A DNA stretch of 58,590 nucleotides from Methanotrichaceae archaeon. GTDB lineage: Archaea; Halobacteriota; Methanosarcinia; Methanotrichales; Methanotrichaceae. The notes beneath the pieces are model-generated. The model was not told the origin of the DNA, made no database searches, and saw nothing but the letters and a program-made list of their open reading frames with translations. Shown here in pieces: positions 4,435 to 48,964 of the stretch; the stretch's first letter is position 1, and each line of letters opens with the position of its first letter. Made by a program: the position numbers and the translations under genes. Location: contig CAWEXU010000027.1 in NCBI GenBank assembly GCA_963813075.1, positions 1-58,590 on the forward strand, in the 5' to 3' direction.

Positions 4435-4549
4435 GGCTCTTCGCTAAATTGTGTGGGTAATGTACTGCAGAAAATTTTACTTTGTGCCTTTGTGGTGAGG
4501 CCTAAGCATCCCGATTTCACCAGAGGGACAAATAGGCACAAAGAAGAGA
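4435..4549. repeat. Dispersed ~115-bp MITE/REP-like element, copy 1
   Basis: Colinear similarity to 48843-48964 (GGCTCT..CGCT..ATTGTGTGG..AATGTACTGC.GAAAATTTT..TGTGCCTTTGTGGTGAGG..GGCACAAAGAAGAGA); internal imperfect inverted repeat CTTTGTGCC/GGCACAAAG. Confidence 0.75.
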
Positions 4550-15809: not shown

Positions 15810-16646
15810 TCAGATGATCCCTTTTTCTATCAGGGCAGAACGCAATCTTTCAACCTCAGATTCCAGCTTTTCGAATCTTTGATCCAGATATCCTTTGAAA
15901 TCCTTTCTGGAGTCTTTTACCTCTTCTTTCAGCTCTTCTTCGACCTCCAGACTATCTCTCTGGAGCTGGATCATGCTGTCCATCTTGCCGCTCATCTCGC
16001 CCTGCGCCATGATCATAGTGTCCATCTTGCCGCTCATCTCGCCCTGCGCCATGATCATAGTGTCCATCTTGCCGCTCATCTCGCCCTGCGCCATGATCAT
16101 AGTGTCCATCTTTCCACCCAGGTTCCTGCTCATCTCACCCTGTGCCTGGATCATGGTGTCCATCTTTCCACCCAGGTTCCTGCTCATCTCACCCTGTGCC
16201 TGGATCATGGTGTCCATCTTTCCACCCAGGTTCCTGCTCATCTCACCCTGTGCCTGGATCATGGTGTCCATCTTTTGGCCTAAATTATCGTTCAATTTGT
16301 TCACGGCAGCAATCAGGTCTTTAAGATATACCGCAGCAGCATCCAGCCTGGAGTCGGTCTCGCCCTTTTCCACGAGCTTATAGAATTTTGCGAATTCCCC
16401 TTTTGGCTCTGAATACTCCATCTCAATGGCCGAGACATTGATCATGGTATTCTTGATATCAATGGCCTCTTCAAACCACTTCAGCTTTTCACTATCGCCT
16501 TCGGCCACTATCTTGACCCGGCCGTCATCCAGGTTCTCAACCGTGCCGGTCAATATCAGCGCTTTGGCAAGATCGACCATTCTGGCACGATATCCAACCT
16601 TTTGCACCGTACCTGAGACGTAGGCCACAAGCCTCTTTTTCATCAT
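15810..16646 (-). CDS. Acylphosphatase with a repeat-containing coiled-coil C-terminal extension
   Basis: VSGTVQKVGYR...GTVENLDDGRVKIVAEG with the catalytic Arg and Asn. Confidence 0.88.
   Translation of the reverse strand: MMKKRLVAYVSGTVQKVGYRARMVDLAKALILTGTVENLDDGRVKIVAEGDSEKLKWFEEAIDIKNTMINVSAIEMEYSEPKGEFAKFYKLVEKGETDSRLDAAAVYLKDLIAAVNKLNDNLGQKMDTMIQAQGEMSRNLGGKMDTMIQAQGEMSRNLGGKMDTMIQAQGEMSRNLGGKMDTMIMAQGEMSGKMDTMIMAQGEMSGKMDTMIMAQGEMSGKMDSMIQLQRDSLEVEEELKEEVKDSRKDFKGYLDQRFEKLESEVERLRSALIEKGII
15979..16266. repeat. Intragenic tandem repeats: 3 x 42 bp (15979-16104) and 3 x 54 bp (16105-16266)
   Basis: Perfect copies encoding MDTMIMAQGEMSGK and MDTMIQAQGEMSRNLGGK. Confidence 0.95.
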
Positions 16647-25201: not shown

Positions 25202-25631
25202 TTGCTGATCAAGGAGTTTCAGAGTGGAAGGCAACTGTTGGCCAGGCTGGACCACGGCGAGGAGATAATCGGCCAGGTCATGTGCATCATAAGAGAGAAA
25301 GATATCCGGGCGGGCCAAGTTGAGCATCATCGGCGCCCTGGAGCAGGCGGAGATCGGCTACTACGACCAGGTCTCTCAGAAGTACCAGGGCATTCAGATC
25401 AACGAGCCGGTGGAGCTTGCCTCCTGCTCGGGCAATATCTCCCTCCTGAGAGGCCAGCCCTTTGCCCACGTTCATGCCGTCCTCTCCGGCATGAAGGGGA
25501 CAGTCTGGGCGGGGCACCTGACCTCGGGCCGGATCTTTGCCGCTGAGCTATATATCCAGGAGCTGACCGGACGGGATCTGATAAGATCTCCCGACTCCGT
25601 CACCGGGCTTAATCTGTGGAGAGAAGAGTGA
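25202..25631 (+). CDS. PPC/DUF296 domain protein (frameshift ~25320)
   Basis: [10 protein letters not shown], then in the next frame IIGAL...[10 protein letters not shown]...[10 protein letters not shown]...GHL. Confidence 0.88.
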
Positions 25632-28600
25632 ATAACCAGGATTATTTTCAGCTATTGCAGGATGGCCTTGGTGATGCCATGGCCGTAGCCAAAGAGGCTC
25701 GCAGCCGGGGGCTGGACCCCACTATTGATGTGGAGATACCCCTGGCGGTGGACCTGGCAGAGAGGGTGGAGAAGCTGATCGGCATCCCAGGCATTGCGGA
25801 GAGGATCAGGCATCATGAAGCGGAAGGATTGAGCCGGGAGGAGTCTGCGCTTGCCATTGGTATTGACTTCGCTGAGGGCCGGCTGGGAGCCGGCGCAAGC
25901 AAGATCGAGTCGGTGGAGAACGCCATCCGCACCTCGGTGGCCCTGCTCACCGAGGGGGTCGTCGCCGCTCCCATTGAGGGCATCGCCCGGGTGGACCTGG
26001 GAAAGAACGATGACGGCACCGAGTACCTCAAGGTCTACTATGCCGGGCCGATAAGGTCTGCCGGGGGCACAGCTCAGGCGCTCTCAGTTCTCGTTGCCGA
26101 CTATGTGAGGAGGAGCGTGGGTATCGCCCCCTGGAAGCCGCGCCCGGAGGAGGTGGAGCGCTATGTGGAGGAGATTGGCCTGTACAAGAGGGTGGCCGGT
26201 CTGCAGTACTCCCCCTCGGATGACGAGATCAGGACCATTGTGAGAAACTGCCCCATCTGCATAGACGGCGAGCCGACGGAAGAAGAGGAGGTCTCTGGCT
26301 ACCGGGACCTGGACAGAATAGAGACCAATCGGGTGCGAGGGGGTATCGCCCTGGTCTCGGCTGAGGGAATCGCCCTGAAGCGGCCCAAGCTCAAAAAGCA
26401 TGTCAGCAAGCTTGGCATCTCCGGCTGGGAGTGGCTGGACTCTCTGGCCAGCGGCAAGAAGGATGGCGGGGACTCAACTCCCAAGTTCCTCCGCGACCTT
26501 ATAGCGGGAAGGCCGGTGTTCTCTCATCCCTCCCGGCCTGGAGGCTTCAGGCTGCGCTACGGCCGGGCGAGGAATACCGGGCTTGCTGCTGCGGGAATCA
26601 ATCCGGCCAGCATGCTCCTTTTAGGGGAGTTCATGGCCGCCGGCACCCAGATCAAGGTGGAGCAGCCGGGCAAAGCGGCGGCGGTAGCGCCGGTCAGCTC
26701 GATTGAGGGGCCAACAGTGAGGCTGCTCAACGGGGATGTGGTCCGCTTTGACTCTGATCAGGATATACTGGAGTGGATGCCGATCACCTGCAAAGATCCC
26801 AAGACCATCCAGACCGCTCTCAAGGCCCATGTATCCAGGATCCTGGACCTGGGGGAGATCCTGATCAGCTATGGGGAGTTTTTGGAGAACAACCGGCCCC
26901 TGGCACCGGCCTCATATGCCTTTGAGTGGTGGGCGGCAGAGCTGCTAAAAGCGGGCGGCGACCCCGCGGGCTGCGAGTCTGTCAATGGCGAAGAGGCTAT
27001 TGCCCTGTCCAGAGAATATGGCGTTCCCCTTCATCCTGCTCATACCCACCTGTGGCATGACCTTTCCCTGGAGGATTACGAGCTATTGCAGGGAGGTTGC
27101 GGCGTCAAAGGGCATTATGGAGTCTGGACGGCTGATCCTCCCTCTGGAGGTCAAGGAGTCCTTGGAGACCCTGCTGGTGCTGCACAAAGTTCGAGAGGGA
27201 CGGATAATGATCGAGGACCCTCTGCCCTTCTTGCTGTGTCTGGGAATTGACGGGGAGGGTGGTTTATTGAAGAAGAGGGCCGGGGAGGCTGGGGGCCCGC
27301 CGGATGGGGGCAAACCGGTTGAGGGCGATCAGGCAGAGGACTCGACCCTGGCCAGGGTCAACCGCCTGGCAGGCATTGTGGTTCGAGCGCGTGCGCCCAC
27401 CCGCATCGGCGCCCGCATGGGCCGGCCTGAGAAGTCGGACAAGAGGCTGATGAGGCCGCCCCCTCATGTCCTCTTCCCGGCGGGGGAGGAGGGAGGCAAG
27501 GGCCGATCCATTCAGGAGGCGGCAAAGCACTCCACCAACAGCTCCTCCGGGATCATCAATGTGCAGATCGAGCGGCGGGTTTGCAAGAGCTGCGGAAAGG
27601 AGGGCTTTGCCTTCAATTGCGTGTGCGGCAGCCATACTGAGAAGAAGAGGGTCTGCCCCAAATGCAATATCCCCGCTCCCGAAAAGTGCCCCAAATGCGG
27701 CCAGGAGAGCAATGCGGTAGCTGAGATGCAGATCGATGTCAAAAAACTCTACCATCAGGCTTTAGAGAATCTGGGGGAGAGGGAGCCCGATTCTCTGAAA
27801 GGGGTTTTGGGCCTCTCCTCCCGCGATAAGACCCCCGAGCCCCTGGAGAAGGGAATCCTGCGGGCCAAGCAGGGGATCAACATCTTCAAGGACGGCACAG
27901 TGAGGTACGACCTCACCGACCTGCCTCTCACCCATTTCCGGCCGGACGAGATCGGCACCAGCCCCCTGGTTTTGCAGAGCCTGGGCTATGCCGTGGATAT
28001 GCATGGCGATCCTTTAACCCGTCCGGATCAGGTCTGCGAGCTGAGGATCCAGGATATCATCCTATCGAGGGATGCGGGCGAGTACCTCTTGAAGGTATCC
28101 TGGTTTGTGGACGAGCTGCTGGCCAGGTTCTATCACCTGCAGCCCTTCTACAATGCCCAGACCCCTCAGGACCTGATCGGAAAGCTGATGGTGGGCCTGG
28201 CCCCCCATACCTCTGCGGGCGTTCTCTGCCGGCTGATAGGCTACAGCCCGGCCTCGGCGGGGTTTGGCCATCCGTTCTTTCATGCCGCCAAACGGAGGAA
28301 CTGCGATGGGGATGAGGACTGCGTGATGCTGCTCATGGATGCCCTGATCAACTTCTCCATGTCCTATCTTCCAGCAAAGCGGGGTGGGAAGATGGACGCC
28401 TGCCTGGTCATGACCACCATTCTCAATCCGGCTGAGGTGGACAAAGAGGCTCATAACCTGGATCTGACCCCGGTCTATCCCCTGGAGTTCTACGAGGCCA
28501 CCCTCAACCAACACCAACCCCAAAGACCTGGAGGGGAGGTTTGATCTGGTCTCTAAAAGGCTGGGCACCGACCAGCAGTATGAGGGGTTCAACTTCAGCC

Positions 28601-29055
28601 ATGCCACCACGGACATCGCTGCCGGGCCGAAGAACAGCGCCTACAAGACCCTGGAGACCATGGTCGATAAGATGGATGCCCAGCTGGAGCTGGCGCGGAT
28701 GATCCGGGCGGTGGACGAGCAGGACGTAGCTGAAAGGGTGATCAACTCTCATTTCCTGCCCGACCTGATAGGCAATCTGCATGCCTTCTCCAAGCAGAAG
28801 GTCAGGTGCGTGAAGTGCGGGGCCAAGTATAGAAGGCCTCCACTGAAGGAGACCTGCCCCAAATGTGGCGGCAGGATGATTCTCACTGTGCACGAGGGCA
28901 GCGTGAGGAAGTATCTGGAGGTCTCAATTAAGGTGGCAGAGGAGTATGGGGTGAGCAGCTACACCAAGCAGAGGCTGCAGCTTTTGAAGATGGAGATCGA
29001 CTCTCTCTTCAAGAACGAGAAGGCCAGGCAGACGGGCCTTGCGGATTTCATGTAG
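25628..29055 (+). CDS. polC: DNA polymerase D large subunit DP2 (indels ~27090 and ~28515; no intein seen)
   Basis: [38 protein letters not shown], catalytic [11 protein letters not shown]-terminal RCVKC...CPKCGG zinc finger. Confidence 0.97.
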
Positions 29056-29149: not shown

Positions 29150-29302
29150 AGCACAAAAAATGAACCACAAAGACACAAAGGCACAAAGATGTCTCTTCAT
29201 ATTGCTGATTAATCTTCATATTGAGGATAGAATCCTTTGTGGCTTTGTGCCTTTGTGGTTTTAAGTTTGAGTCACAATGCCCACACAAAACCGCAAAGAG
29301 CC
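29150..29302. repeat. CACAAAG-microrepeat inverted-repeat element related to the 4435 and 48843 copies
   Basis: CCACAAAGACACAAAGGCACAAAG versus CTTTGTGGCTTTGTGCCTTTGTGG; minus-strand terminus GGCTCTTTGCGGTTTTGTGTGGG resembles the start of the other copies. Confidence 0.65.
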
Positions 29303-29567
29303 CGATTTTTATCAGGATTTCGATGCTGAATTTCCCTGAAATTCATTTTAAGTACTTATGATTTGTCAGAACGAATATACGCCAAAAAATATATACTGCA
29401 TCCAGCAAAAAGCTATTTCTACAGGCGAACATATTGTCTAGGGAAGAGGAGGAATGGAGCGTTCTGCTGGGTGAATACCGGTTTTATTCTGGCTATTTCT
29501 TAATGGAAGTCGTCAGAGCGTTCTTCTCAAAGTCATTCTCACAGAAAGGCAGAGCGGAGGTACGGCC

Positions 29568-30315
29568 TTGAAGCCCACAGTGGCCCGCTATGCCCTGGCC
29601 GATCAGGCCAAGGCCACTTCTCACCCAGACCATCCTCCTGGCGGAGAGGGTCCACCGGGCGCTGGTGGAGCTATCCGATGGCTCGGCGGTTTTCACCGGC
29701 TGCGACGAGCTGCACCGGCCCTTGCGAGGCCACGAGCATGCCCATATCTTCTGCGAGTCAAACCCCGGCGGCGGGGGCGAGATCACCAACATCAGCATCT
29801 ATGCTCCCAGAGGCTTTGACTCCGGGGAAGAAGAGGCCTTGGAGAGATTGGCGGAGATCTATGATGGTCAGGGGGCAAGCACCAGTCTGGTCTTTCTGGG
29901 CTTTGCCCGGCCAGCGGACCTGGTCGGCATAAGCCCGCTATTCGCCAGGTCGAGGGTCTGGCTCTCTCATACCCCCTTCCTTCCCACCCGCCATCCCAAG
30001 GCCACAAGAGCGGGGGTGCCGAAGTTCGACTGCACCGGCTTTCAGATCGGCAGCCCGGAGCACGAACTCTTGCGGCTGCTGGGGCTGGCAGGCTTTCCTG
30101 AGCCTGATATGATGGAGAGGGTGGACCACACCAGGTTGGGCGAAAGGGAGGTTCCCTGGGATGCCTTTGTGCGCCGGAGGGAGGGGGATGAGAGGAGGCC
30201 GGCGGCGAATGGGGAAGGGTACGGCTTTCGCATCGTATTTCCCGAGGCGGTGCAGGGGCCGGTGGCGGTGGGATATGGGGGGCATTTTGGGATGGGGGGA
30301 TTTGAGGGTGAATAA
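29568..30315 (+). CDS. csb2: Stand-alone Cas6-like C-terminal domain of type I-G Csb2 (1-bp indel ~29610)
   Basis: GGAGGT RBS before TTG; KPTVARYAL...LAERVHRALV, GHEHAHIF, SRVWLSHTPFLPTRHPK and the terminal Gly-rich loop FPEAVQGPVAVGYGGHFGMGGF. Confidence 0.85.
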
Positions 30316-30399
30316 GTTAAAACAAGATGTGTAATATCATAAATTTTTAGTGAAGTTAGGAGCGATAGGCTGATATAGGATTAAAGCAGATTATTAATT

Positions 30400-30484
30400 T
30401 AATCCGCAGCTAAAAAAAAGCCGCGGCCCAATTGAAACAAATATAATGGGCGATCAAGTCTAAAAGTCGTCCATGTTTTTTTTT
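30400..30484 (+). CRISPR. Orphan CRISPR repeat (type I-G-like) plus one spacer-like guide and T9 terminator (crRNA-like RNA)
   Basis: 30400-30438 TAATCCGCAGCTAAAAAAAAGCCGCGGCCCAATTGAAAC has a CCGC.GCT/AGC.GCGG stem and the canonical ATTGAAAC handle; followed by 37 unique nt and T9 (30476-30484). No second repeat. Confidence 0.8.
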
Positions 30485-30643
30485 ATTATAATAGATAGAT
30501 TTGTACCTGGCTACAACTGGATAGTATTCATTATAATTAATATATTTCAGTATTTTTTTTATGCCTGTAACCATACAAAATTTTCATATACTTTGAGCGA
30601 TATCTTACCATAGAGGGATACACAAAGTCCTCTAGGTGGTAAG

Positions 30644-30811
30644 ATGAAAATAAATAGACTTAGAACGGGAATAGATAACGACTTTGAGACTCGATCGGCC
30701 ATCAGCAAATGCCTAACTAGGCTAATATTTTATGCGCTGAGCGCTATCGGGATACATCTAATTGCGCAGTCCATTGAGATAAATGTGAATGTGTGGATAG
30801 TGATGCATTAA
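30644..30811 (+). CDS. Putative 55-aa small protein with hydrophobic C-terminus; contains the guide target
   Basis: AGGTGGT RBS at 30634-30640; MKINRLRTGIDNDFETRSAISKCLTRLIFYALSAIGIHLIAQSIEINVNVWIVMH; below the ORF-track cutoff; no recognised family. Confidence 0.5.
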   Translation: MKINRLRTGIDNDFETRSAISKCLTRLIFYALSAIGIHLIAQSIEINVNVWIVMH

Positions 30812-30840
30812 ATGAGGGTTAATGCATCATATATTTTTTT
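30801..30840 (+). terminator. Hairpin plus T-tract after the small ORF
   Basis: Perfect 11-bp inverted repeat TGATGCATTAA (30801-30811) / TTAATGCATCA (30819-30829), then T7 (30834-30840). Confidence 0.6.
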
Positions 30841-30927
30841 AGTTATACATAACATTTTGTTAACTACTCTGGATTTAATTCAACTACCTGAATCATATAA
30901 AATGCTAGCAATCAAAGGTGAGCAATT

Positions 30928-32217
30928 ATGAATCGCAGTATTCCAGACTTTCCAGGAAAACCTATTAATGTAGATCCTCATCCAAATAAGATTAAAAGGG
31001 TTTACAGCATTCATGTTATAACGCCGATCTTTAGTGGTGGTGTCAGAGCTAACGAGAATGATCCTATTACACTCATACGCCCATCGAGCATTCGCGGCCA
31101 TCTTAGGTTCTTATGGCGGGCGACAAGAGGAGCAAATTGCACCACAGTCGCCGAGCTTCGGCAACGCGAGGGCGAGATCTGGGGAACGACCGATAATCCC
31201 AGCCAGGTGATCGTTGAAGCCTCAGTTACATCAAAAGGGTCAACATATCCATGTGCGTACATCCCTGATGGAAAAAACTTTGCCAGATTCAGGGAAAGCC
31301 ATCCAGGATATGCACTTTTTCCATTTCAGGGAAATAAAAAAGAAGGAATTCCAATTGCCAATTGCACCTCGAAAGTCTCTTTTGATTTGAAGCTGATCTA
31401 TCCACAGAGCCTATCAGATGACTTGGAGGCAGCTGTCTGGGCTTGGGTGAACTTCGGAGGTATAGGCGCTCGCACCAGAAGGGGCGGCGGGTCACTGTAT
31501 TGCCAGGAGCTTGCGCCGCCGGATGCATCCAGCATCGCATCTTGGTATAAAGAACGTTTAAAGAGCTTAGGCATCATTCTGTCCCATCCCAAACAATGGC
31601 CTATCTTGCCAGATAGCCTGCTTGTTAAGAGCAGCAACAATGCAATGCAGGCATGGAATGATGTTGTGACCCTGATGCAGACATTCAGGCAGGGCCAGAA
31701 TGTAGGCAGAAATCCTGGCAAGGCACCGAATCGCCCAGGACGATCACGATGGCCTGAACCAGAGACTATCAGAAGCGCGACTTCTCAGCGGGATCCAAAG
31801 CACTCCAGAATGTCGGGAATTCCCAATGATGCTTTCCCCAGAGCTGAGCTTGGTCTGCCTATAGTGTTCCATTTTAAGGACTACAATGATCCTAAAGACA
31901 CTGAGCTTTACCCAATAGTGGATGGTGAGGAGAAGACAAGAATGGCAAGTCCATTGATATTGAGACCGATAGTCTGTCAAAATGGAGAGGTGCAGCAGAT
32001 GATCCTTTGCTTAAAGGCACCATCACCCAATGAAGTCGTTCTAAAAAAAGCACCTGAAAATCCAAAGTTCAAGAAAATTCGAGATCCTATGCTCAATGCA
32101 TATCCACAATCCCCTCTAGGAAGTCCAGGGCCCGGACTGCCTGCAAGATCTCGATCCGGTTCAGCAATTGAAGGATTCCTCGCCTTTGCTGAGGAGAATA
32201 AATTCCGGGTGGTTTAA
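30928..32217 (+). CDS. cmr1: Type III-B RAMP protein Cmr1
   Basis: VITPIFSGGV, RPSSIRGHLRFLWRA, FGGIGARTRRGGGSL, RAELGLPIVF, RMASPLILRP. Confidence 0.95.
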   Translation: MNRSIPDFPGKPINVDPHPNKIKRVYSIHVITPIFSGGVRANENDPITLIRPSSIRGHLRFLWRATRGANCTTVAELRQREGEIWGTTDNPSQVIVEASVTSKGSTYPCAYIPDGKNFARFRESHPGYALFPFQGNKKEGIPIANCTSKVSFDLKLIYPQSLSDDLEAAVWAWVNFGGIGARTRRGGGSLYCQELAPPDASSIASWYKERLKSLGIILSHPKQWPILPDSLLVKSSNNAMQAWNDVVTLMQTFRQGQNVGRNPGKAPNRPGRSRWPEPETIRSATSQRDPKHSRMSGIPNDAFPRAELGLPIVFHFKDYNDPKDTELYPIVDGEEKTRMASPLILRPIVCQNGEVQQMILCLKAPSPNEVVLKKAPENPKFKKIRDPMLNAYPQSPLGSPGPGLPARSRSGSAIEGFLAFAEENKFRVV

Positions 32218-32218
32218 C

Positions 32219-34213
32219 TTGGCGTCATATCTATATGTTCTCTCAATCGGCCCTGTCCAGGACTTCATTAAAAATGCCAGGAGGACAAGGGACCTCTGGT
32301 TTGGCTCACACCTGCTTTCAGAGATCAGCAAAGCTGCAGCAAGAGAAGTATCTGGACATGGTGAGCTCATATTTCCCGCATTGAATGCAGGAAATAAAGA
32401 ACTGGAACCTGACAGTAAACCTGGAGCCTTTAATGTCTCTAATATAATACTTGCCAAACTGGACGAAAATCCCATCAAAATTAACGAACTGGCCAAGGAA
32501 GCAGCTCGCAAAGAATGGATGCGCTACGCCGACGGTGCGAAAGATCTGGCAGATTATCTGGCCCCAGGATTTGTCAGTGATGAGAGGTGGTCGGAGCAGA
32601 TTCACGATGTAATAGAGTTTTATTCAGCTTGGGTGCCTTTCAGTGATGATCACGAAGGAAATTACAAAGAATCTCGAATAAGGTTGATGCGTCTTTTGGA
32701 TGGTAGAAAGGCTATAAGGAACTTCGATCAGCCAAAGAAGCATCCAGGAATCCCAAAGTGCTCCCTTGATGGAGCTAGAGATAGCATCATTGAAAAAGAT
32801 AAGGAGATTCTCAAGGAGAACGAGCTAGCTCTAAAGATGCGGCTCCAGGCAGGGGAGCAACTCTGTGCCATTGGACTCACCAAGAGGCTTGGTCGACGTA
32901 AGAAAAGTGATGACGAAGATTTGTCTTCGGTGAGACTTGAGGCGTTTCCATCTGTCGTGCGTGTATCACTCGATCCATGGATTCGAGGAGTTCATAACTC
33001 AGATGCAGGCGCTAGGATTCTTCTAGATGACATCGGGAAGATATGCGAGGATAATACCAAAGCTAATGTTATGAGCGGTGGAATCGGAAATGGCTATATT
33101 GCCCAGGGAACCGGCTGTATGAGCAACGGAAAACGGCGTTATCCCGAGTTTCCTTTCGATGGTCAGGTTTTGCATCTTCCGAGAATTGATAGGATGATGA
33201 AAGCCAGAGAAGAGAAGAACCGTGATAGTTATAATAGTTGGGAAGCTTTTCTCTCTGATACAGATATAAGCGATCTTAAAACCATAAAAAGGATGGTGGA
33301 AAGACTACAGCGGAGCGGAGAGACAAAGGATGGAGAGAGATTTTTCGGATTGGGTGAGCCAGGTCGCTATTTAGCGATTCTAGTCGCAGATGGCGATCGC
33401 ATGGGCAAAATAATTTCATACATAGAGGAGAGACCAGAGCATAGAAGCCTCTCGAAAAAGTTAGCTGAATTCGCCAAGGAAGCCAGAAAGATTGTTGATA
33501 AAGATAATCATGGTTGTTTAATATATTCGGGGGGAGATGATGTTCTGGCTTTTGTGCCATTGGATTTCTGTCTTCAAGCTGCTAGGGATCTGCATGACGG
33601 TTTTGGAAAATATTTGGAGAAATTCTCTTACAATGAAGGAGACAAGACTATCAAACCAAGCCTTTCAGTAGGTATCGCCATTGGCCATTCAATGGAACCT
33701 CTTGAAGATCTGCTAAGCGCAGGAAGAGACGCGGAAGAGGCAGCAAAAAAGGGAACAGTACCTGATGATGAGAGAAACGGCCTTGCAGTCCATCTCTATC
33801 CCAGAAGTGGCACACCTATCAAGATTCGCGAAAGATGGAATCCAGAGGGGGAAATCAGCCTCGATAAGCGTCTCCTCAAGTGGGCGGAGATGCATTGTAT
33901 GGATATGCTGCCGGATGGCGCCGCTTACGACATGCATGAGCTAGCAGAGGATTACAAAGATTGGAAAGGAACCACTAAAGCTCAGCTTGAAAGTCTCATT
34001 ATTGCAGATAGTTGGAGACTTCTAAAGCGCAAAAAGGCAGGCAGCATAAGTTCTGAGGCTCTCAAATTAGATCATATCAAAGACCTACTAGCAGGGGTCG
34101 ATTCTTATGAAAAGATCAAAATGAGATCAGATGAGCTTATTTTGTCTCGACAGATAGCATCTGCGATGAAGAAGGCGAAATGGAATATTCAAAAAGAAAA
34201 GGAAATCAATTAG
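32219..34213 (+). CDS. cas10: Cas10/Cmr2 without HD nuclease domain, Palm motif intact
   Basis: Starts directly at SIGPVQDFIKNARRTRDLWFGSHLLS; ADGDRMGK and YSGGDDVLAF. Confidence 0.96.
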   Translation: MASYLYVLSIGPVQDFIKNARRTRDLWFGSHLLSEISKAAAREVSGHGELIFPALNAGNKELEPDSKPGAFNVSNIILAKLDENPIKINELAKEAARKEWMRYADGAKDLADYLAPGFVSDERWSEQIHDVIEFYSAWVPFSDDHEGNYKESRIRLMRLLDGRKAIRNFDQPKKHPGIPKCSLDGARDSIIEKDKEILKENELALKMRLQAGEQLCAIGLTKRLGRRKKSDDEDLSSVRLEAFPSVVRVSLDPWIRGVHNSDAGARILLDDIGKICEDNTKANVMSGGIGNGYIAQGTGCMSNGKRRYPEFPFDGQVLHLPRIDRMMKAREEKNRDSYNSWEAFLSDTDISDLKTIKRMVERLQRSGETKDGERFFGLGEPGRYLAILVADGDRMGKIISYIEERPEHRSLSKKLAEFAKEARKIVDKDNHGCLIYSGGDDVLAFVPLDFCLQAARDLHDGFGKYLEKFSYNEGDKTIKPSLSVGIAIGHSMEPLEDLLSAGRDAEEAAKKGTVPDDERNGLAVHLYPRSGTPIKIRERWNPEGEISLDKRLLKWAEMHCMDMLPDGAAYDMHELAEDYKDWKGTTKAQLESLIIADSWRLLKRKKAGSISSEALKLDHIKDLLAGVDSYEKIKMRSDELILSRQIASAMKKAKWNIQKEKEIN

Positions 34214-34224
34214 GTGGTCCTATA

Positions 34225-35484
34225 ATGGAGACATACCTGACAATAACACCCTACGATCCGATAATTGCTAGAGACGGTCGTCCATTTGGATTCGGACAAA
34301 GGCGAATGCATTCCTTAAATTGGCCTTATCCATCGGTCCTGGCAGGCTCTTTGAGAACTATAATTGGAAAAGAGATGGGGACAGACTTCAGGGATCCAAA
34401 ATTTTTAGAGGATTTAAAGAAAATTATTATCTCTGGGCCTCTGCCTTTGTGTAGTGATAAGCTATTCTTTCCAGCTCCTAAGGATCTTATTGTGCGAGAA
34501 GAGGGGAATAAGCGAGATGCATTTGCACTTCGACCGATGAAGTTGAATAAAAATAAGGATGACTCGGATGAAGGCTGTGATCTGCCGAATAGAGATCTTC
34601 TTCCTACATTGCTTCCTATGGATATAGAGGATTTTAAGCCAGCCGCAGTGCCCTCATTCTGGTCAGCTGAAATGATGATTCAGTGGCTAATGAATCCTTT
34701 TGGAAAAGATTTTCGGGCACCACCTGATCCTGAAAAGGCTAACTCTCATACGGATTTTCTTCCATCTATGCCGAAAGATTCGAGAGTTCATGTTAAGATC
34801 TCTCCAGAGCTAGGTTCAGTTGAAGAATCTGATGGCGAAGGTATGCTTTTTATGACTGTGGGACTGGATCTATCCCAAAAGGAAAAGCCTCAAGGAATAA
34901 AGCTTGCTGCAAGGTGCGAAGCTGAAAAAATCCTTGGAGAGAAATTGCAAAATATCAATTCCTTCGGCACATTTGGTGGAGAGAGGCGACTTGCTCACTG
35001 GAAAACGGAAGCGAAGGATAAGATGCAGAAGATTTGGAGCTTCCCAGAGGAGATTAAGCAGGCTCTTGAGGATCAAAAAGAGAAATCTGGTAGACAACTG
35101 CTTCGCATGATATTGGTGACCCCTGCTATATTCTCTGATGGTTGGCTTCCAGGATGGATTAATTGCCATGGTGGTTCGCTTGTTGGTTCCCCTCCTCTCG
35201 AAAATCGAGCTAATTTGGAATTGAGATTGATATCGGCATCTATTGATCGCTGGAAGCCTATTTCCGGCTGGAGTCCTGAACGCCTCAAAGACGGCCCTAA
35301 ACCTGGCCCAAAACCAATTCGAAGGCTTGTTGCTGCGGGTTCGGTTTATTTCTTTGAAGTTTTATCTGGGAATGCAGAAGATATAGTCAAAGAACTCTGG
35401 CTGAGGTCGGTATGTGATGATGATCAGGATAGGCGAGATGGATTTGGACTTGCGGTCTGGGGAATATGGGATTATGCTGATTGA
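34225..35484 (+). CDS. cmr3: Type III-B protein Cmr3
   Basis: PYDPIIARDGRPF, WPYPSVLAGSLRT, FGGERRLA, LVTPAIF, AGSVYFF, DGFGLAVWG. Confidence 0.95.
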   Translation: METYLTITPYDPIIARDGRPFGFGQRRMHSLNWPYPSVLAGSLRTIIGKEMGTDFRDPKFLEDLKKIIISGPLPLCSDKLFFPAPKDLIVREEGNKRDAFALRPMKLNKNKDDSDEGCDLPNRDLLPTLLPMDIEDFKPAAVPSFWSAEMMIQWLMNPFGKDFRAPPDPEKANSHTDFLPSMPKDSRVHVKISPELGSVEESDGEGMLFMTVGLDLSQKEKPQGIKLAARCEAEKILGEKLQNINSFGTFGGERRLAHWKTEAKDKMQKIWSFPEEIKQALEDQKEKSGRQLLRMILVTPAIFSDGWLPGWINCHGGSLVGSPPLENRANLELRLISASIDRWKPISGWSPERLKDGPKPGPKPIRRLVAAGSVYFFEVLSGNAEDIVKELWLRSVCDDDQDRRDGFGLAVWGIWDYAD

Positions 35485-35516
35485 GATGAATATAGATATG
35501 TGAAGAGGTGTGATAT

Positions 35517-36437
35517 TTGACAACTAAAATATATTGGCTGGAGGCTATAACGCCTCTGCATGTTGGGACGGGTCGAGGAGTAGGATTCATAGATCTTCCA
35601 ATTATCAGGGAAAAGGTGACTGGTTGGCCTCTTGTGCCAGGATCGTCAGTCAAAGGTGTAATTAGGGACTACTTCGATCAAGAGAAGAGCAAAAAAACGG
35701 ATGAAGAGAAAAAAGCCTTTGAGAAGCTTATTAATGCGGCCTTCGGAAAGCCAGACGATGATAAAGGCAACGCTAACTCAGGCAGCCTTGTCTTTACAGA
35801 TGCCAGAATTGTCTGCCTTCCCATTCGCAGCCTTTATGGCACCTTTGCCTACATAACAAGCCGTCTAGTTCTTGAGAGGATGAAAAGAGATCTTAGAGAT
35901 GCTGGATACACAGATGTACCAGAAGTGCCTGACGCAAGCGAGACCGAAGTGCTTCTTGCGCAAGAATCCAAATTAGCTGCGGATGGCAAGGTTTTCTTTG
36001 AGGATCTAGACTTCACAGCCAGAAAAGGTAATGATCTTGTTCAAAAATGGGCAGGTTTGCTTGCAAGAGCAATCTTTTCTGGAGATGTTAAATGGCAAGG
36101 CATCTTTCAGGAGCGCTTTGCAGTAGTATCGGATAATAGCTTCAACTTCCTGTCTGAGACTGGGACTGAGGTTGCGGCCCATATCAGAATTAAGGATGAA
36201 ACAAAGACTGTCGACGAGGGTGCCCTATGGTATGAGGAGGCTTTGCCGGTGGAGACGATCCTGGCTGGTATTGTCTGGTGTGATAGGGTCTATGGCTGCA
36301 ATGGCGGCGATCAGAAGACGCTTGTTGAAAAGATGATGAGCACATTTTGTGGTGGTGACTCAGCGCGGGAGCTGCAGATCGGCGGAAAGGCGACTGTTGG
36401 CAAAGGCAGAGCGAGATGCCAATTCACGAGGGGTTGA
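35517..36437 (+). CDS. cmr4: Type III-B backbone RNase Cmr4
   Basis: TPLHVGTG, catalytic Asp in FIDLPIIRE, PGSSVKG, ALWYEEALP, QIGGKATVGKG. Confidence 0.96.
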   Translation: MTTKIYWLEAITPLHVGTGRGVGFIDLPIIREKVTGWPLVPGSSVKGVIRDYFDQEKSKKTDEEKKAFEKLINAAFGKPDDDKGNANSGSLVFTDARIVCLPIRSLYGTFAYITSRLVLERMKRDLRDAGYTDVPEVPDASETEVLLAQESKLAADGKVFFEDLDFTARKGNDLVQKWAGLLARAIFSGDVKWQGIFQERFAVVSDNSFNFLSETGTEVAAHIRIKDETKTVDEGALWYEEALPVETILAGIVWCDRVYGCNGGDQKTLVEKMMSTFCGGDSARELQIGGKATVGKGRARCQFTRG

Positions 36438-36438
36438 A

Positions 36439-36783
36439 ATGGCAGGAAATACTCTCCAGACCAGACAGCAGAAAAGAGCGCAGCTTGCTTATAGCTGTGT
36501 TTCATCTCGCTTGAAAGGGGATGAGAAGTACGGACAAATTGCCAAAAAATTTCCTGCTCTTGTTCACAATTGCGGCCTGGCTCAATCCATTGCTTTTGTG
36601 CAGGCAAAGGAGGGAGCAACAGGTGATGCCTACATATCCCATCTAACCCAGGTGATGGGCGAAACGGGAGATCTTGGGAGCACCAGTAGAAGTGCCGATA
36701 TGATGAAGTATCAGAGGCTAACCCGCGAGGCAATCGAGTCAGCTACATGGATTAAACGCTACTCTGAAGCCCTTCTGGAGTGA
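36439..36783 (+). CDS. cmr5: Type III-B small subunit Cmr5
   Basis: TRQQKRAQLAY, KKFPALVHNCGLAQSIAF, YQRLTREA...WIKRYSEA. Confidence 0.93.
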   Translation: MAGNTLQTRQQKRAQLAYSCVSSRLKGDEKYGQIAKKFPALVHNCGLAQSIAFVQAKEGATGDAYISHLTQVMGETGDLGSTSRSADMMKYQRLTREAIESATWIKRYSEALLE

Positions 36784-36791
36784 GACTGACC

Positions 36792-37933
36792 ATGGCAGAT
36801 GCTTGTAGATCGGTTATCTCTGATTGGTGGGCACTAGATAAAGCTAGCGAGAATGCGGGGCTATTGAGAGATAGGTTTCTGCGAATAGCTGTTAAAGACA
36901 AAAAGAATCACCCTCAAGCGCGAGACGATCTTTTCGAGGCGATGTGCCAGTCTCTAGTTAATTCTCAAGAGATTTACATAATAGCTTATCAAAAACAAGA
37001 GTCTGCAATTAAAAATTTGAAATCCAAAGGATTCTTCAACACAGATGGCAGGATGATCATCGGCCTCGGGGGAGAGAATGTTCTGGAGACAGGTCTCACA
37101 TTAAATCATACTTATGGGACACCGATGATCCCAGGAACAGCGCTTAAGGGACTGGCGGCACACTACTGCCATAAGGCCTGGGGGGAAGCAGATGAGCGGT
37201 TCAAGATCGGCGGTGAGTACCATCGGGCCATCTTCGGGACCACTGAATATTCAGGGCACCTCATATTCCATGATGCCTGGATCACGCCTGAGAGCTTGAT
37301 CGGATCGCTCCAGCCTGATGTGATGACGCCACACCATGGTGATTACTACTCTGATGAGAAGGGCCTGACTCCACCGACAGACTTCGATGATCCAAATCCC
37401 GTAACATTCCTCTCAGTAGTGGGAAAATTTTTGATTGCAGTCTCATGTGATGTTCCGGGACCTGTTGGTGACGAATGGGCCGAGAGGGTCTTCGATCTGC
37501 TCACTGATGCGCTCAGAGAATGGGGGATCGGTGGCAAGACCAATGCGGGTTATGGGAGACTCATCCTAGAGAATCCAGAAGAGATGAGCGAAAAGGCCGC
37601 CGAACCAACGATTGTATCTTCGAACTCCGATTTACAGAAATCACGGAAACAAATCTCATCAGTTGCGAAAAAATTAAAATATAAAAAGGGCGATACTGTT
37701 GAGGTTACCAGAGTTGCCGATCCTAAGGAGAAACGAGGTGCTTCCTATTTCATGGCTGATGATGGCATCGGTGGACTTGTAGTTTTGGAACACCGCCTTC
37801 TGCTGAGATCGGTGAGAAAGTCCTCTTGGAAATAAATGGAGTAATGGAAAAAGAGGGTTTATACAATTTTGCTGCCGTCGGCGCAAAGAGAGAATCTGCT
37901 CATCAGACAAAGGGCAAGAGAGGACGAAGATGA
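36792..37933 (+). CDS. cmr6: Type III-B RAMP protein Cmr6 with C-terminal extension (probable indel ~37787; end approximate)
   Basis: RMIIGLG, ETGLTLNHTYGTPMIPGTALKG, DVMTPHH..YY, DDPNPVTFL, GIGGKTNAGYG. Confidence 0.93.
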
Positions 37934-39242
37934 GGATCTTATTATGCCTTATTAGCGACCAGCATGTGCCGAACCTATTGACTGTTCATAAGGTAATGCC
38001 GGATCTTCTTATTTTGGTTGTAACACCAGATATGAAGCGCAGGAATGTGGCCACTAATTTCATGGATGCTCTGGATATAGGTGGATTGAGTTACCTTCAT
38101 GAAAATGATCGGCACGAAATAATCCCTCTCGAAGACGAGAACTCTATGCCTTCAGCCTTCAAGGTCTTTACAGATATCACTTCAAAGTATCCAGAAGCCG
38201 AGTGGATTATTAATATCACTGGTGGGACTAAGATAATGAGCATCGCTGCATTTGAATTCTTCAAAGATCGAAACAATTGCACAATGCTTTATGTGCCAAT
38301 TAATGATCAAACCAAAGCTCTGAAATTCACTGGAAAAAAACGGCTCAATCCATTCGACGAAAAGAATGCTGCGATCCAACGTGAGGCATTTTCTATTGCC
38401 AATAAAACTGAGCAATTAGATCATGAGGTCTCAATCAGTCAATTCCTGGCAGGATACGGATTTAAGCTATCTAAAGATGCAAAAGATATAGAAGAGAATG
38501 AGAAGCTTGCTTTGAAGTGGTTCGAAACCTCAGTATACCTTGTGGAAAATTATGATAAAAAAGATGTGATTGAGTTCTTGCGACATTTCACAGAAGTCTC
38601 ACATAACAGAAATGGTCGCGATAACGGCCTAAGTATCCATGAATCCGACAAGATAGATTTAAAAGACGAGCGTTTGATTGAGAACCTAACTCGGAATATT
38701 TCCTTCAATTGGCTTAAAAGATTCCCGGATAACAGGGTGTTTAGAGTCTAACGAGGTTGAATTTCTAACTGGAGGCTGGCTCGAAGTTTTCATTTGGGCC
38801 TTACTCTATCATCATTCGGATAATCTGGGGGGGTCAGAGAGGTACATCTAAATCTTGAAATAGCAAGCAAAGGAATAATTGAACCAAGGCCTAAGAATGA
38901 ATGGGACGTCACTTTTATGCAGGATCAGTCCCTTTGCTTTATTGAGTGCAAGACGGGAAAACAAAAGAAAAAGAAAGGAGAAGACATTCTCTATAAAGTG
39001 GAGGCGATCAAGAAGCATTTAGGTGCTCTGAGAGTTAAATATGTTATCTTGCGACAACCTCATCTAATGTTATCGATAAGGATACCGGCAAGATATATGA
39101 GCAATTATCAACACGATGCGCGCTCTACAACTGCAAGATTATTGATGGGGAGAAGCTTCAGAAGATCGCTAGAATGCACCTTGATCCAGGCAGACTCGGG
39201 AGCTCAGAGATAGTTGCATTAATAGATCAGATTCTCTTATAA
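37930..39242 (+). CDS. CARF + PD-(D/E)xK nuclease effector, Card1/Can2 (DUF1887) family; several indels
   Basis: CARF region LISDQHVPNL...INITGGTKIMSIAA; later frames give EFLTGGWLEVF, NEWDVTF and FIECKTG, ending IDQILL*. Confidence 0.85.
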
Positions 39243-39268
39243 TGAGCCCTGGGAAAGAAGGTTTGCAC

Positions 39269-39547
39269 TTGACCGCACCTATCATCTACTCCATCGCCGT
39301 CTCCTCGCCCATCACCCCCGCCGAGCCGCTCCCGCCTCTGCCCGACATCCCCCGCGGCTCGCTGGTGATCGTGGAGGGCCGGGCTCCCATCTGGCGCTAT
39401 GGAATGGCACTGCACAAATTGCACGCCTCGCCCGCTGCAGCCATCGCTTTCTACGATCCCCGCCTGGGGGCGGTGGTGGTGGCCACCCACAGCCAGGAGT
39501 GGCAGGTGGGCCAGGTGGTGGATGTGACGCTGCCGGTGGAGAAATAG
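39269..39547 (+). CDS. csx3: CRISPR ring nuclease Csx3/Crn3
   Basis: VIVEGRAPIWRYGMALH...IAFYDPRLGAVVVATHS signature. Confidence 0.92.
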   Translation: MTAPIIYSIAVSSPITPAEPLPPLPDIPRGSLVIVEGRAPIWRYGMALHKLHASPAAAIAFYDPRLGAVVVATHSQEWQVGQVVDVTLPVEK

Positions 39548-39579
39548 GGCTAAGGGCTTGAACTGCTGGGCAAGGTATA

Positions 39580-40025: not shown

Positions 40026-40255
40026 ATGACCGCATCCATCATCTGCGTTCCAACTTGCCCGACATCCTCCGCGACTCGCTGGTGATCGTGCATGGGTGCC
40101 ATCTGGCGCTATGGAATGGCACTGCACAAATTGCACGCTCCCCCCGCCGCTGCCATCGCCTTCTACGATCCGCGTACGGTGGTTATGGCCAATCACCGCC
40201 CATGCAATGGCAATTGAGCCAGGCGTCGGATGCCATCCTGCCGGTGGAAAAGCAG
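40026..40255 (+). pseudogene. csx3: Degenerate second copy of csx3
   Basis: Near-identical DNA blocks to 39269-39547 (CCATCTGGCGCTATGGAATGGCACTGCACAAATTGCACGC, TTCTACGATCC, CTGCCGGTGGA) with multi-base deletions and substitutions. Confidence 0.85.
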
Positions 40256-40319
40256 AGCGATGGGTAGACTTGCCGGGCAAGAGGGCAATGGATATATGAA
40301 TATTGCATTAGCTCCAGAC

Positions 40320-48842: not shown

Positions 48843-48964
48843 GGCTCTCCGCTCTATTGTGTGGCAATGTACTGCGGAAAATTTTCCTTTGTACTTCTGT
48901 GCCTTTGTGGTGAGGTCTTAGCATGCCGATTTTACTAGAGCTACAAATGGGCACAAAGAAGAGA
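48843..48964. repeat. Dispersed MITE/REP-like element, copy 2
   Basis: Colinear similarity to 4435-4549. Confidence 0.75.

Follow-up and report, generated by a model that had tools for sequence, protein, structure and literature searches.

A solitary CRISPR guide and a gene for a small hydrophobic peptide form a two-part module upstream of cmr1-6 in a type III-B locus of Methanothrix; the module is real and conserved and is probably a new RNA-targeting variant of CRISPR-guided self-regulation. The window, a stretch of 58,590 nt from a Methanotrichaceae archaeon, places it between the gene for a Csb2-like Cas6 and a complete cmr1-6 operon; the 55-aa ORF and its flanking elements, on which the original prediction had focused, make up one half of it and the lone guide the other. 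Judging from the arrangement of guide and target, it is very probable that the guide is loaded into the type III-B effector and directs it to the peptide mRNA, which would be control of the CreA/CreR kind at the RNA level. The parts of the locus are as follows:

29560..30315, plus strand: gene for a Csb2-like stand-alone Cas6, matching the C-terminal half of TIGR02165
30363..30382, plus strand: promoter-like motif of the guide gene, aligned in 8/8 Methanotrichaceae modules, with L121 the most diverged
~30401..30438, plus strand: solitary degenerate CRISPR repeat, with a stem at 30404-30426 and the 8-nt handle ATTGAAAC at 30431-30438
30439..30484, plus strand: guide spacer (30439-30475) with self-hairpin, then a T9 run; the part pairing with the target is positions 8-32 (30446-30470)
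30576..30590, plus strand: BRE/TATA-like box, candidate promoter for a peptide-cmr transcript that is predicted to start at 30612; a similar box is found in G036 and G019
30611..30640, plus strand: 5' hairpin (6 bp, 30611-30634) and RBS (30634-30640)
30644..30811, plus strand: 55-aa peptide ORF, family A, its N-half variable, basic and bearing the target, its C-half hydrophobic
30678..30704, plus strand: stretch of the mRNA targeted by the guide, with 30698, 30692 and 30686 as predicted ends of the 5' products of Cmr
30801..30840, plus strand: 11-bp hairpin (30801-30829) and T7 run (30834-30840)
30928..37835, plus strand: cmr1-cmr6 operon; Cas10/Cmr2 with GGDD and without an HD domain
37930..39547, plus strand: Card1-type CARF effector and csx3 ring nuclease, the cOA arm

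The assignment to type III-B rests on the presence of cmr1-6, the catalytic Asp of Cmr4, which retains the H...D catalytic spacing, and the GGDD motif of Cas10. Several genes of the window are broken: the essential polD DP2 gene is split over three overlapping ORFs (25616-29055), and single breaks interrupt the Cas6 gene near its 5' end (29560-29590) and shift the frame of the CARF effector gene (38751). Since the orthologs are intact, including an uninterrupted 290-aa Cas6 in L036 and a CARF effector of 417 aa in G019, these breaks are probably indel errors of the assembly. Direct repeats of 81 and 57 nt (39382-39556 and 40094-40264) mark a second, degraded csx3 copy. Other repeats of the window are a 54-nt coding tandem repeat (15968-16329) and a small dispersed element, MITE- or REP-like, at 4483-4549, 29163-29260 and 48898-48964, whose copy at 29163-29260 has a 26-nt inverted repeat. 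The same genome contains a second, fragmented type III-B operon on contig C7 (L143:9782-19251), in which a Csb2-like Cas6 gene directly precedes cmr1 with no module between them. Three IS110 copies on its contigs C7 and C10 (L143:521-2005, L145:13434-14918 and L146:9993-11477) start directly after the handle end of a CRISPR repeat, indicating insertion of IS110 in CRISPR arrays.

The guide gene has the anatomy of a single-repeat CRISPR unit. Its 8-nt handle is identical to that of the CRISPR arrays of its own genome, and the Csb2-like Cas6 likely processes the solitary repeat. The motif at 30363..30382 is a candidate guide promoter; it is not common to the CRISPR array leaders with which it was compared. 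The spacer can fold into a 9-bp self-hairpin (30446-30474) ahead of the T9 run, retained in G036 and G019, which occupies positions 12 and 33-36 left free by the target and may serve as the guide terminator. Scored at its 22 pairing positions against both strands of the 2.7-Mb genome, the guide reaches 21 at its own target and 18 at the next best site; among 93 array spacers used as a control, the high scorers are IS110 ends, repeat-repeat matches and two scattered 19-of-22 chance matches.

Within the genus, cmr1 is matched in 13 of 59 genomes, and the module occurs at 5 of the 16 cmr1 loci with upstream DNA (window, G036, G019, G068 and G069). On the Cmr1 tree its distribution is patchy: G081, nearest by cmr1, lacks it, and at most module-free loci of the genus the Cas6 gene lies close upstream of cmr1. 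A wider scan brought the total to 101 regions by adding 26 of 27 genome loci and 59 of 80 metagenome loci (the remainder having <450 nt of upstream sequence), and covered 262 handle-like sites at a threshold of at least 19/26 matches at positions 7-32, all positions counted. Sixteen of its 17 hits have the guide on the plus strand, antisense to plus-strand RNA, and one is a direct repeat. In 786 tests with shuffled targets there was 1 hit. Deduplication leaves 10 distinct modules with 5 unrelated guide families, no two of which have more than 12 of 26 letters in common. L121 and L050 were picked up only with looser handle patterns; L124 was seen only when positions 12, 18, 24 and 30 were ignored and is therefore excluded from the tally of ten, and the repeat-derived hits at L049 were dropped. 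Up to 1.5 kb upstream of 30 cmr1 loci of the class, only three already known modules were found.

The lone-guide geometry also occurs at bacterial-type III-B loci (L058:1999-2850, L124:1540-2030 and L050:540-980), whose modules carry cargo other than hydrophobic peptides. Those of L058 and L124 lie near helix-turn-helix genes; the target of L124 covers the region before the RBS of a 239-aa ORF of no assigned function, and that of L050 is duplicated in tandem before a 60-aa ORF. The Planctomycete helix-turn-helix homologs L159 and L161 have no guide. In G068 (L149:6336-7173) a HepT/MntA type VII toxin-antitoxin pair separates the Cas6 gene from the guide module, and ORFs like this pair precede cmr1 in other relatives.

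The original prediction placed the guide target on codons 12-20, with the mismatched bases at first codon positions, and this is borne out: pairing covers 30678-30702 plus 30704, and the mismatches at 30686, 30692 and 30698 lie opposite guide positions 24, 18 and 12. Across the 10 modules of 5 guide families, pairing spans about positions 8 to 32. Positions 12, 18 and 24 match in 4/30 cases against 211/230 at the other positions from 7 to 32; position 30 matches in 10/10, positions 1-5 in 9/50 and positions 33-36 in 7/40. Related modules are not independent, so the count was repeated by hand with one module per guide family, giving 1/15 at positions 12, 18 and 24 and 107/115 elsewhere. According to the accessible text of Steens et al. 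(PMC8376896), Cmr leaves every sixth nucleotide unpaired, has a 3' seed and carries guides of 40 and 46 nt, and mismatches at nucleotides 1-5 abolish cOA production while cleavage is retained. The modules agree with all of these points, and the end of pairing at position 32 is what a 40-nt guide should give. The cut register is taken from the accessible part of a review (PMC5965380), not from primary Cmr4 work: the first cut is placed 5 nt from the duplex end next to the handle and the later ones at 6-nt intervals, and 5' products are accordingly predicted to end opposite guide positions 6, 12, 18 and 24, position 18 corresponding to 30692 (further sources on Cmr chemistry, likewise available in part, are PMC11127173, PMC7192623 and PMC4770243). 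As far as base pairing can tell, the geometry fits RNA binding and cutting by Cmr without Cas10 signalling and does not appear to fit DNA targeting of type I.

Guide and target have also changed together. Changes in the target are mirrored in the guide in 5/5 cases between the window and G068, 1/1 for G019 and 2/4 for G036, and in family B (see below) in 5/8, 6/10 (G069 against L121) and 1/4. Synonymous sites under the guide are constrained, with pS 0.14 against 0.55-0.59 downstream (window against G036 and G019). A degraded array remnant holding an old, functionless self-spacer is accordingly contradicted by these compensatory changes, as well as by the conserved promoter motif and position and the non-random register of mismatches; we regard it as highly improbable, even though the distribution of the module is patchy and the survey of Shmakov et al. 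(10.1101/2023.03.03.530964) describes, in its accessible text, type III mini-arrays as without conserved position or target and probably non-functional.

Whether another effector uses the guide can be judged from the same geometry. A type I Cascade (I-G or other) acting on DNA as in CreTA, or a co-resident type III-A Csm complex, has a slim chance of being the partner. The repeat and the Csb2-like Cas6 do belong to the I-G family, I-G is present in G068, and the genome of the window (G000) has Csm1 fragments (contig C13) beside an array with the same handle, so that its type III-A Csm could share the guide. For type I, CreA needs handle-proximal pairing, with positions 1, 5 and 10 reported to matter in the available portion of 10.1101/2024.01.05.574328, whereas positions 1-5 are unpaired here; the predicted start 30612 is 66-92 nt upstream of the target, which falls inside the ORF and not in a promoter; all 16 module hits are antisense to RNA; and no I-G Cas7 was found in 4 of the 5 module genomes, among them the one-contig G019 (99% completeness). 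Use by type I is therefore unlikely.

Type I toxin-antitoxin systems such as Hok, Ldr and Fst combine a small hydrophobic peptide with a nearby small antisense RNA and structured mRNA ends. The peptide here is likewise hydrophobic and below 60 aa, and the naked guide-target duplex is stable (-29 to -40 kcal/mol), so the module might be imagined as a protein-independent pair of this kind in which a crRNA-derived RNA now works as plain antisense RNA. We consider this very unlikely: mismatches fall where Cas7 flips bases out, in each of 5 unrelated guides, pairing goes no further than position 32, and the handle and repeat stem are kept, none of which would be needed without Cmr. The putative antitoxin here differs from those of type I in its crRNA anatomy and Cas7 register, and no sequence likeness to these systems was found.

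Everything listed in the original prediction around the ORF is present: the BRE/TATA-like box at 30576-30590, the hairpin at 30611-30634, whose first base would lie outside the RNA if transcription starts at 30612, the RBS abutting it (30634-30640), and the perfect 11-bp hairpin with its T7 run. The 5' hairpin is present in the window, G036 and G019 and is not evident in G068, and an SD-like motif occurs in 4/4. The ORF itself, with its basic N-half and hydrophobic C-half, is conserved in orthologous loci, being open from the same start in 4/4 family A genomes (55, 55, 55 and 58 aa; 35-55% identity to the window). Its maximal Kyte-Doolittle 19-mer is 1.74, within the ranges of 1.44-2.11 for six family A ORFs from loci and 1.51-1.81 for family B. 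Family B (G069, L063 and L121) comprises hydrophobic ORFs of 24-31 aa in the same slot with the RBS under the guide, and L045 has a longer hydrophobic ORF; altogether 8/8 Methanotrichaceae module types inspected place a hydrophobic ORF, of two sequence families, over or just behind the target. Two further ORFs were set aside, one of 39 aa (30812-30931), absent from the ORF lists of G036, G019 and G068, and an antisense one of 49 aa, those lists covering sense frames.

A profile search of 105 genomes of the order gave 4 strong hits, all within the module; six weak genome hits (five in frames of 817-1022 aa, the sixth being G086) and three other weak hits (the two inspected are an unrelated gene) were not counted. 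Searches of protein databases with family A returned 7 and 9 proteins, given without genomic context, and P0016, a 511-aa repeat protein, was judged spurious. Neither Pfam (best weak match PycTM, E 0.003, below cut-off, for homolog P0013), PHROGs nor the ESM Atlas (best 0.81) gave a usable match for the peptide or a likeness to any toxin family, and Rfam gave nothing above the gathering score. AlphaFold models the peptide as a single long helix (pTM 0.49). Over codons 23-49, pS is higher than pN in 6/6 pairs, with p<0.05 in 4/6 of these non-independent pairs, and dN/dS is 0.32-0.64 where computable; in the N-half dN/dS is above 1 in most pairs. Because a shifted-frame control is not clean (window against G036, pS 0.50 and pN 0.24, though with 6 stop codons) and the chance of a frame staying stop-free is 0.06-0.23 per pair, the evidence for a selected peptide is moderate. 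Family A appears to be under modest purifying selection, and we think it likely that the peptide is translated and selected, which agrees with the earlier proposal of a hydrophobic peptide with an mRNA targeted by a guide of the Cmr type. A toxic RNA like CreT, a mini-ORF whose rare codons sequester a tRNA, is not supported, as the ORF has 55 codons and no rare-codon doublet at its start (relative use 0.45-1.0 at codons 2-5).

Public RNA data (4 of 24 listed runs from 4 studies, as assembled contigs of a strain ~94% alike the window) bear on the extent of the transcript. In 3/4 runs (X9, X19 and X21), contigs of 7401, 7135 and 1333 nt start at ~30622-30627, close to the predicted start, and cross the 11-bp hairpin into cmr1, with no cover over 30327-30620; such contig starts hint weakly at a start site, and contigs do not prove one transcript. 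The ORF is thus probably the first cistron of the cmr mRNA, and its description as a self-contained unit is not supported. The hairpin with its T7 run (30801..30840) is the one terminator-like site found, against 0.2 expected in shuffles, and 2/10 of its pairs are changed on both sides among 5 sequences, a weak covariation; it could be a leaky terminator or a stabilising stem. The contigs also contain intact mRNA across the target. The guide is uncovered in 3/4 runs, which is uninformative about its expression. Run X18 has an 81-nt piece whose ends are exactly 30612 and 30692, the former ~26 nt past the TATA box, and one of 60 nt in which 30692 is followed directly by 30612 with no letters in common at the joint (one contig, depth 2.8). 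The junction end 30692 is the predicted Cmr cut opposite guide position 18, a coincidence with a chance of ~1.5% (three sites in ~200 positions) that was noticed after the fact. Such a head-to-tail joint could arise from ligation or template switching in library making; X18 has low cover upstream and may therefore hold DNA, and relatives of its strain type (L038) have a guide mismatch at position 16, near this cut. The junction is at most a hint of Cmr cutting at 30692.

The alternative offered with the original prediction, that the ORF is the leader of the cmr mRNA and the circuit a feedback on cas expression, is at least as well supported as the toxin idea, and compatible with it, since the contigs run into cmr1 and no conserved promoter is visible by eye between ORF and cmr1 in 7/7 modules. 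In its pure form, a CreR-like autoregulation in which the guide clips the leader cistron to tune cmr and the peptide is a harmless accessory or tolerated uORF, it is the main rival explanation, and one we hold to be less probable, though worth serious attention. The read-through and the missing promoter favour it, as do the absence in G019 of any cas gene upstream of the module, the constancy of the guide geometry while the cargo varies between lineages, and the modest selection on the peptide. However, a leader needs no ORF, and yet 8/8 of the Methanotrichaceae module types have a hydrophobic one, from two families; the guide of family B covers the peptide RBS, and a hairpin with a T-run stands between peptide and cmr1.

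We propose that a dedicated promoter drives the guide gene, that the single repeat of this gene is cut by the Csb2-like Cas6, and that the product would be loaded into Cmr as a crRNA of roughly 40 nt (8 + 32). Cmr would then bind the peptide mRNA through positions 8-32 and cut it in the 6-nt register, a cleavage of which the RNA data give a weak hint. With positions 1-5 unpaired, Cas10 should make no cOA and the CARF nuclease should stay off, which would be silencing without immunity. The transcript seems, from the contigs, to read at least partly into cmr1-6, and its first cistron holds the target, so that a cut would lower both the peptide and Cmr in a negative feedback; that it damps both by way of such partial read-through is reasonably likely. 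Peptide and Cmr would rise together whenever Cmr is missing, is fully taken up by other crRNAs or meets an anti-CRISPR that blocks it. The least certain steps are the last: the peptide would be a translated, membrane-active protein and, once derepressed, would act as an addiction or abortive toxin. Toxicity of the derepressed peptide is a putative property to which we give slightly less than an even chance; the patchy distribution of the module, its absence from G081 and the visible uncut mRNA speak against addiction. The reading as a whole, a type III-B counterpart of CreA/CreR at the RNA level with feedback on Cmr and a toxic peptide, is the one we favour, with some reserve.

Known crRNA-like regulators, CreA, CreR and scaRNA, are described in the accessible texts of 10.1101/2023.03.03.530964, PMC12737573 and PMC9458426 as using effectors of type I, II or V to act on DNA. 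In CreTA (type I-B, Haloarcula; PMC9458426), as here, an ectopic degenerate repeat with a spacer partly complementary to the adjacent cargo gene lies in the cas locus and uses its own effector. The portions of that paper available describe CreA as guiding Cascade to promoter DNA with a PAM and repressing transcription of an RNA toxin, whereas the present module targets RNA at the coding region or RBS (in the window, codons 12-20), leaves the 5' positions of its guide (1-5 in the window) without pairing, and has a type III-B complex as effector and a peptide as cargo. CrePA (type I-F, Acinetobacter; 10.1101/2024.01.05.574328, accessible part) resembles the module in placing a protein cargo under a crRNA-like RNA as a candidate anti-CRISPR sensor; CreP is given as a KilA-N protein repressed at its promoter (accessible text of the review PMC12737573), while the cargo here is a 55-aa hydrophobic peptide without family match, targeted as mRNA. 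The CreR and other cas-regulating mini-arrays (types I and V-A; PMC12737573, 10.1101/2023.03.03.530964) feed back on their own cas operon, and the target RNA here is contiguous with cmr1 in the contigs; those cases, as far as the available texts describe them, bind the cas promoter, but here the target is 66-92 nt past the predicted start and control would be by cutting a leader cistron. An engineered type III knockdown (PMC9297841, accessible part) likewise uses a type III complex to lower an endogenous mRNA, but it is artificial and of type III-A, while the present system is natural and apparently avoids immunity by guide design. A 2025 review (PMC12737573) lists, in its accessible text, the extension to other CRISPR types as open, and no natural type III case of such self-regulation was found in a literature search with most subscription journals beyond its reach; the supplementary files of the survey 10.1101/2023.03.03.530964 may list these loci.

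The locus is a conserved counter-example to the view of type III mini-arrays as non-functional, and it names two uncharacterised peptide families and makes exact predictions: the guide length, three cut positions and no cOA. If the reading is true, evolution has turned the separability of RNA cutting from Cas10 signalling to self-regulation, and the module would offer a design rule by which native Cmr could be used in methanogens for immunity-free knockdown. At its furthest, and here we are tentative, type III-B may be a natural RNAi-like silencer. Its lone guides, with five or more separate origins among archaea and bacteria, would pair with the cutting segments only, keep the segment that activates Cas10 unpaired, and hold down a new membrane-toxic peptide family together with the cmr operon on a shared transcript; losing or inhibiting Cmr would then both raise Cmr and arrest the cell.
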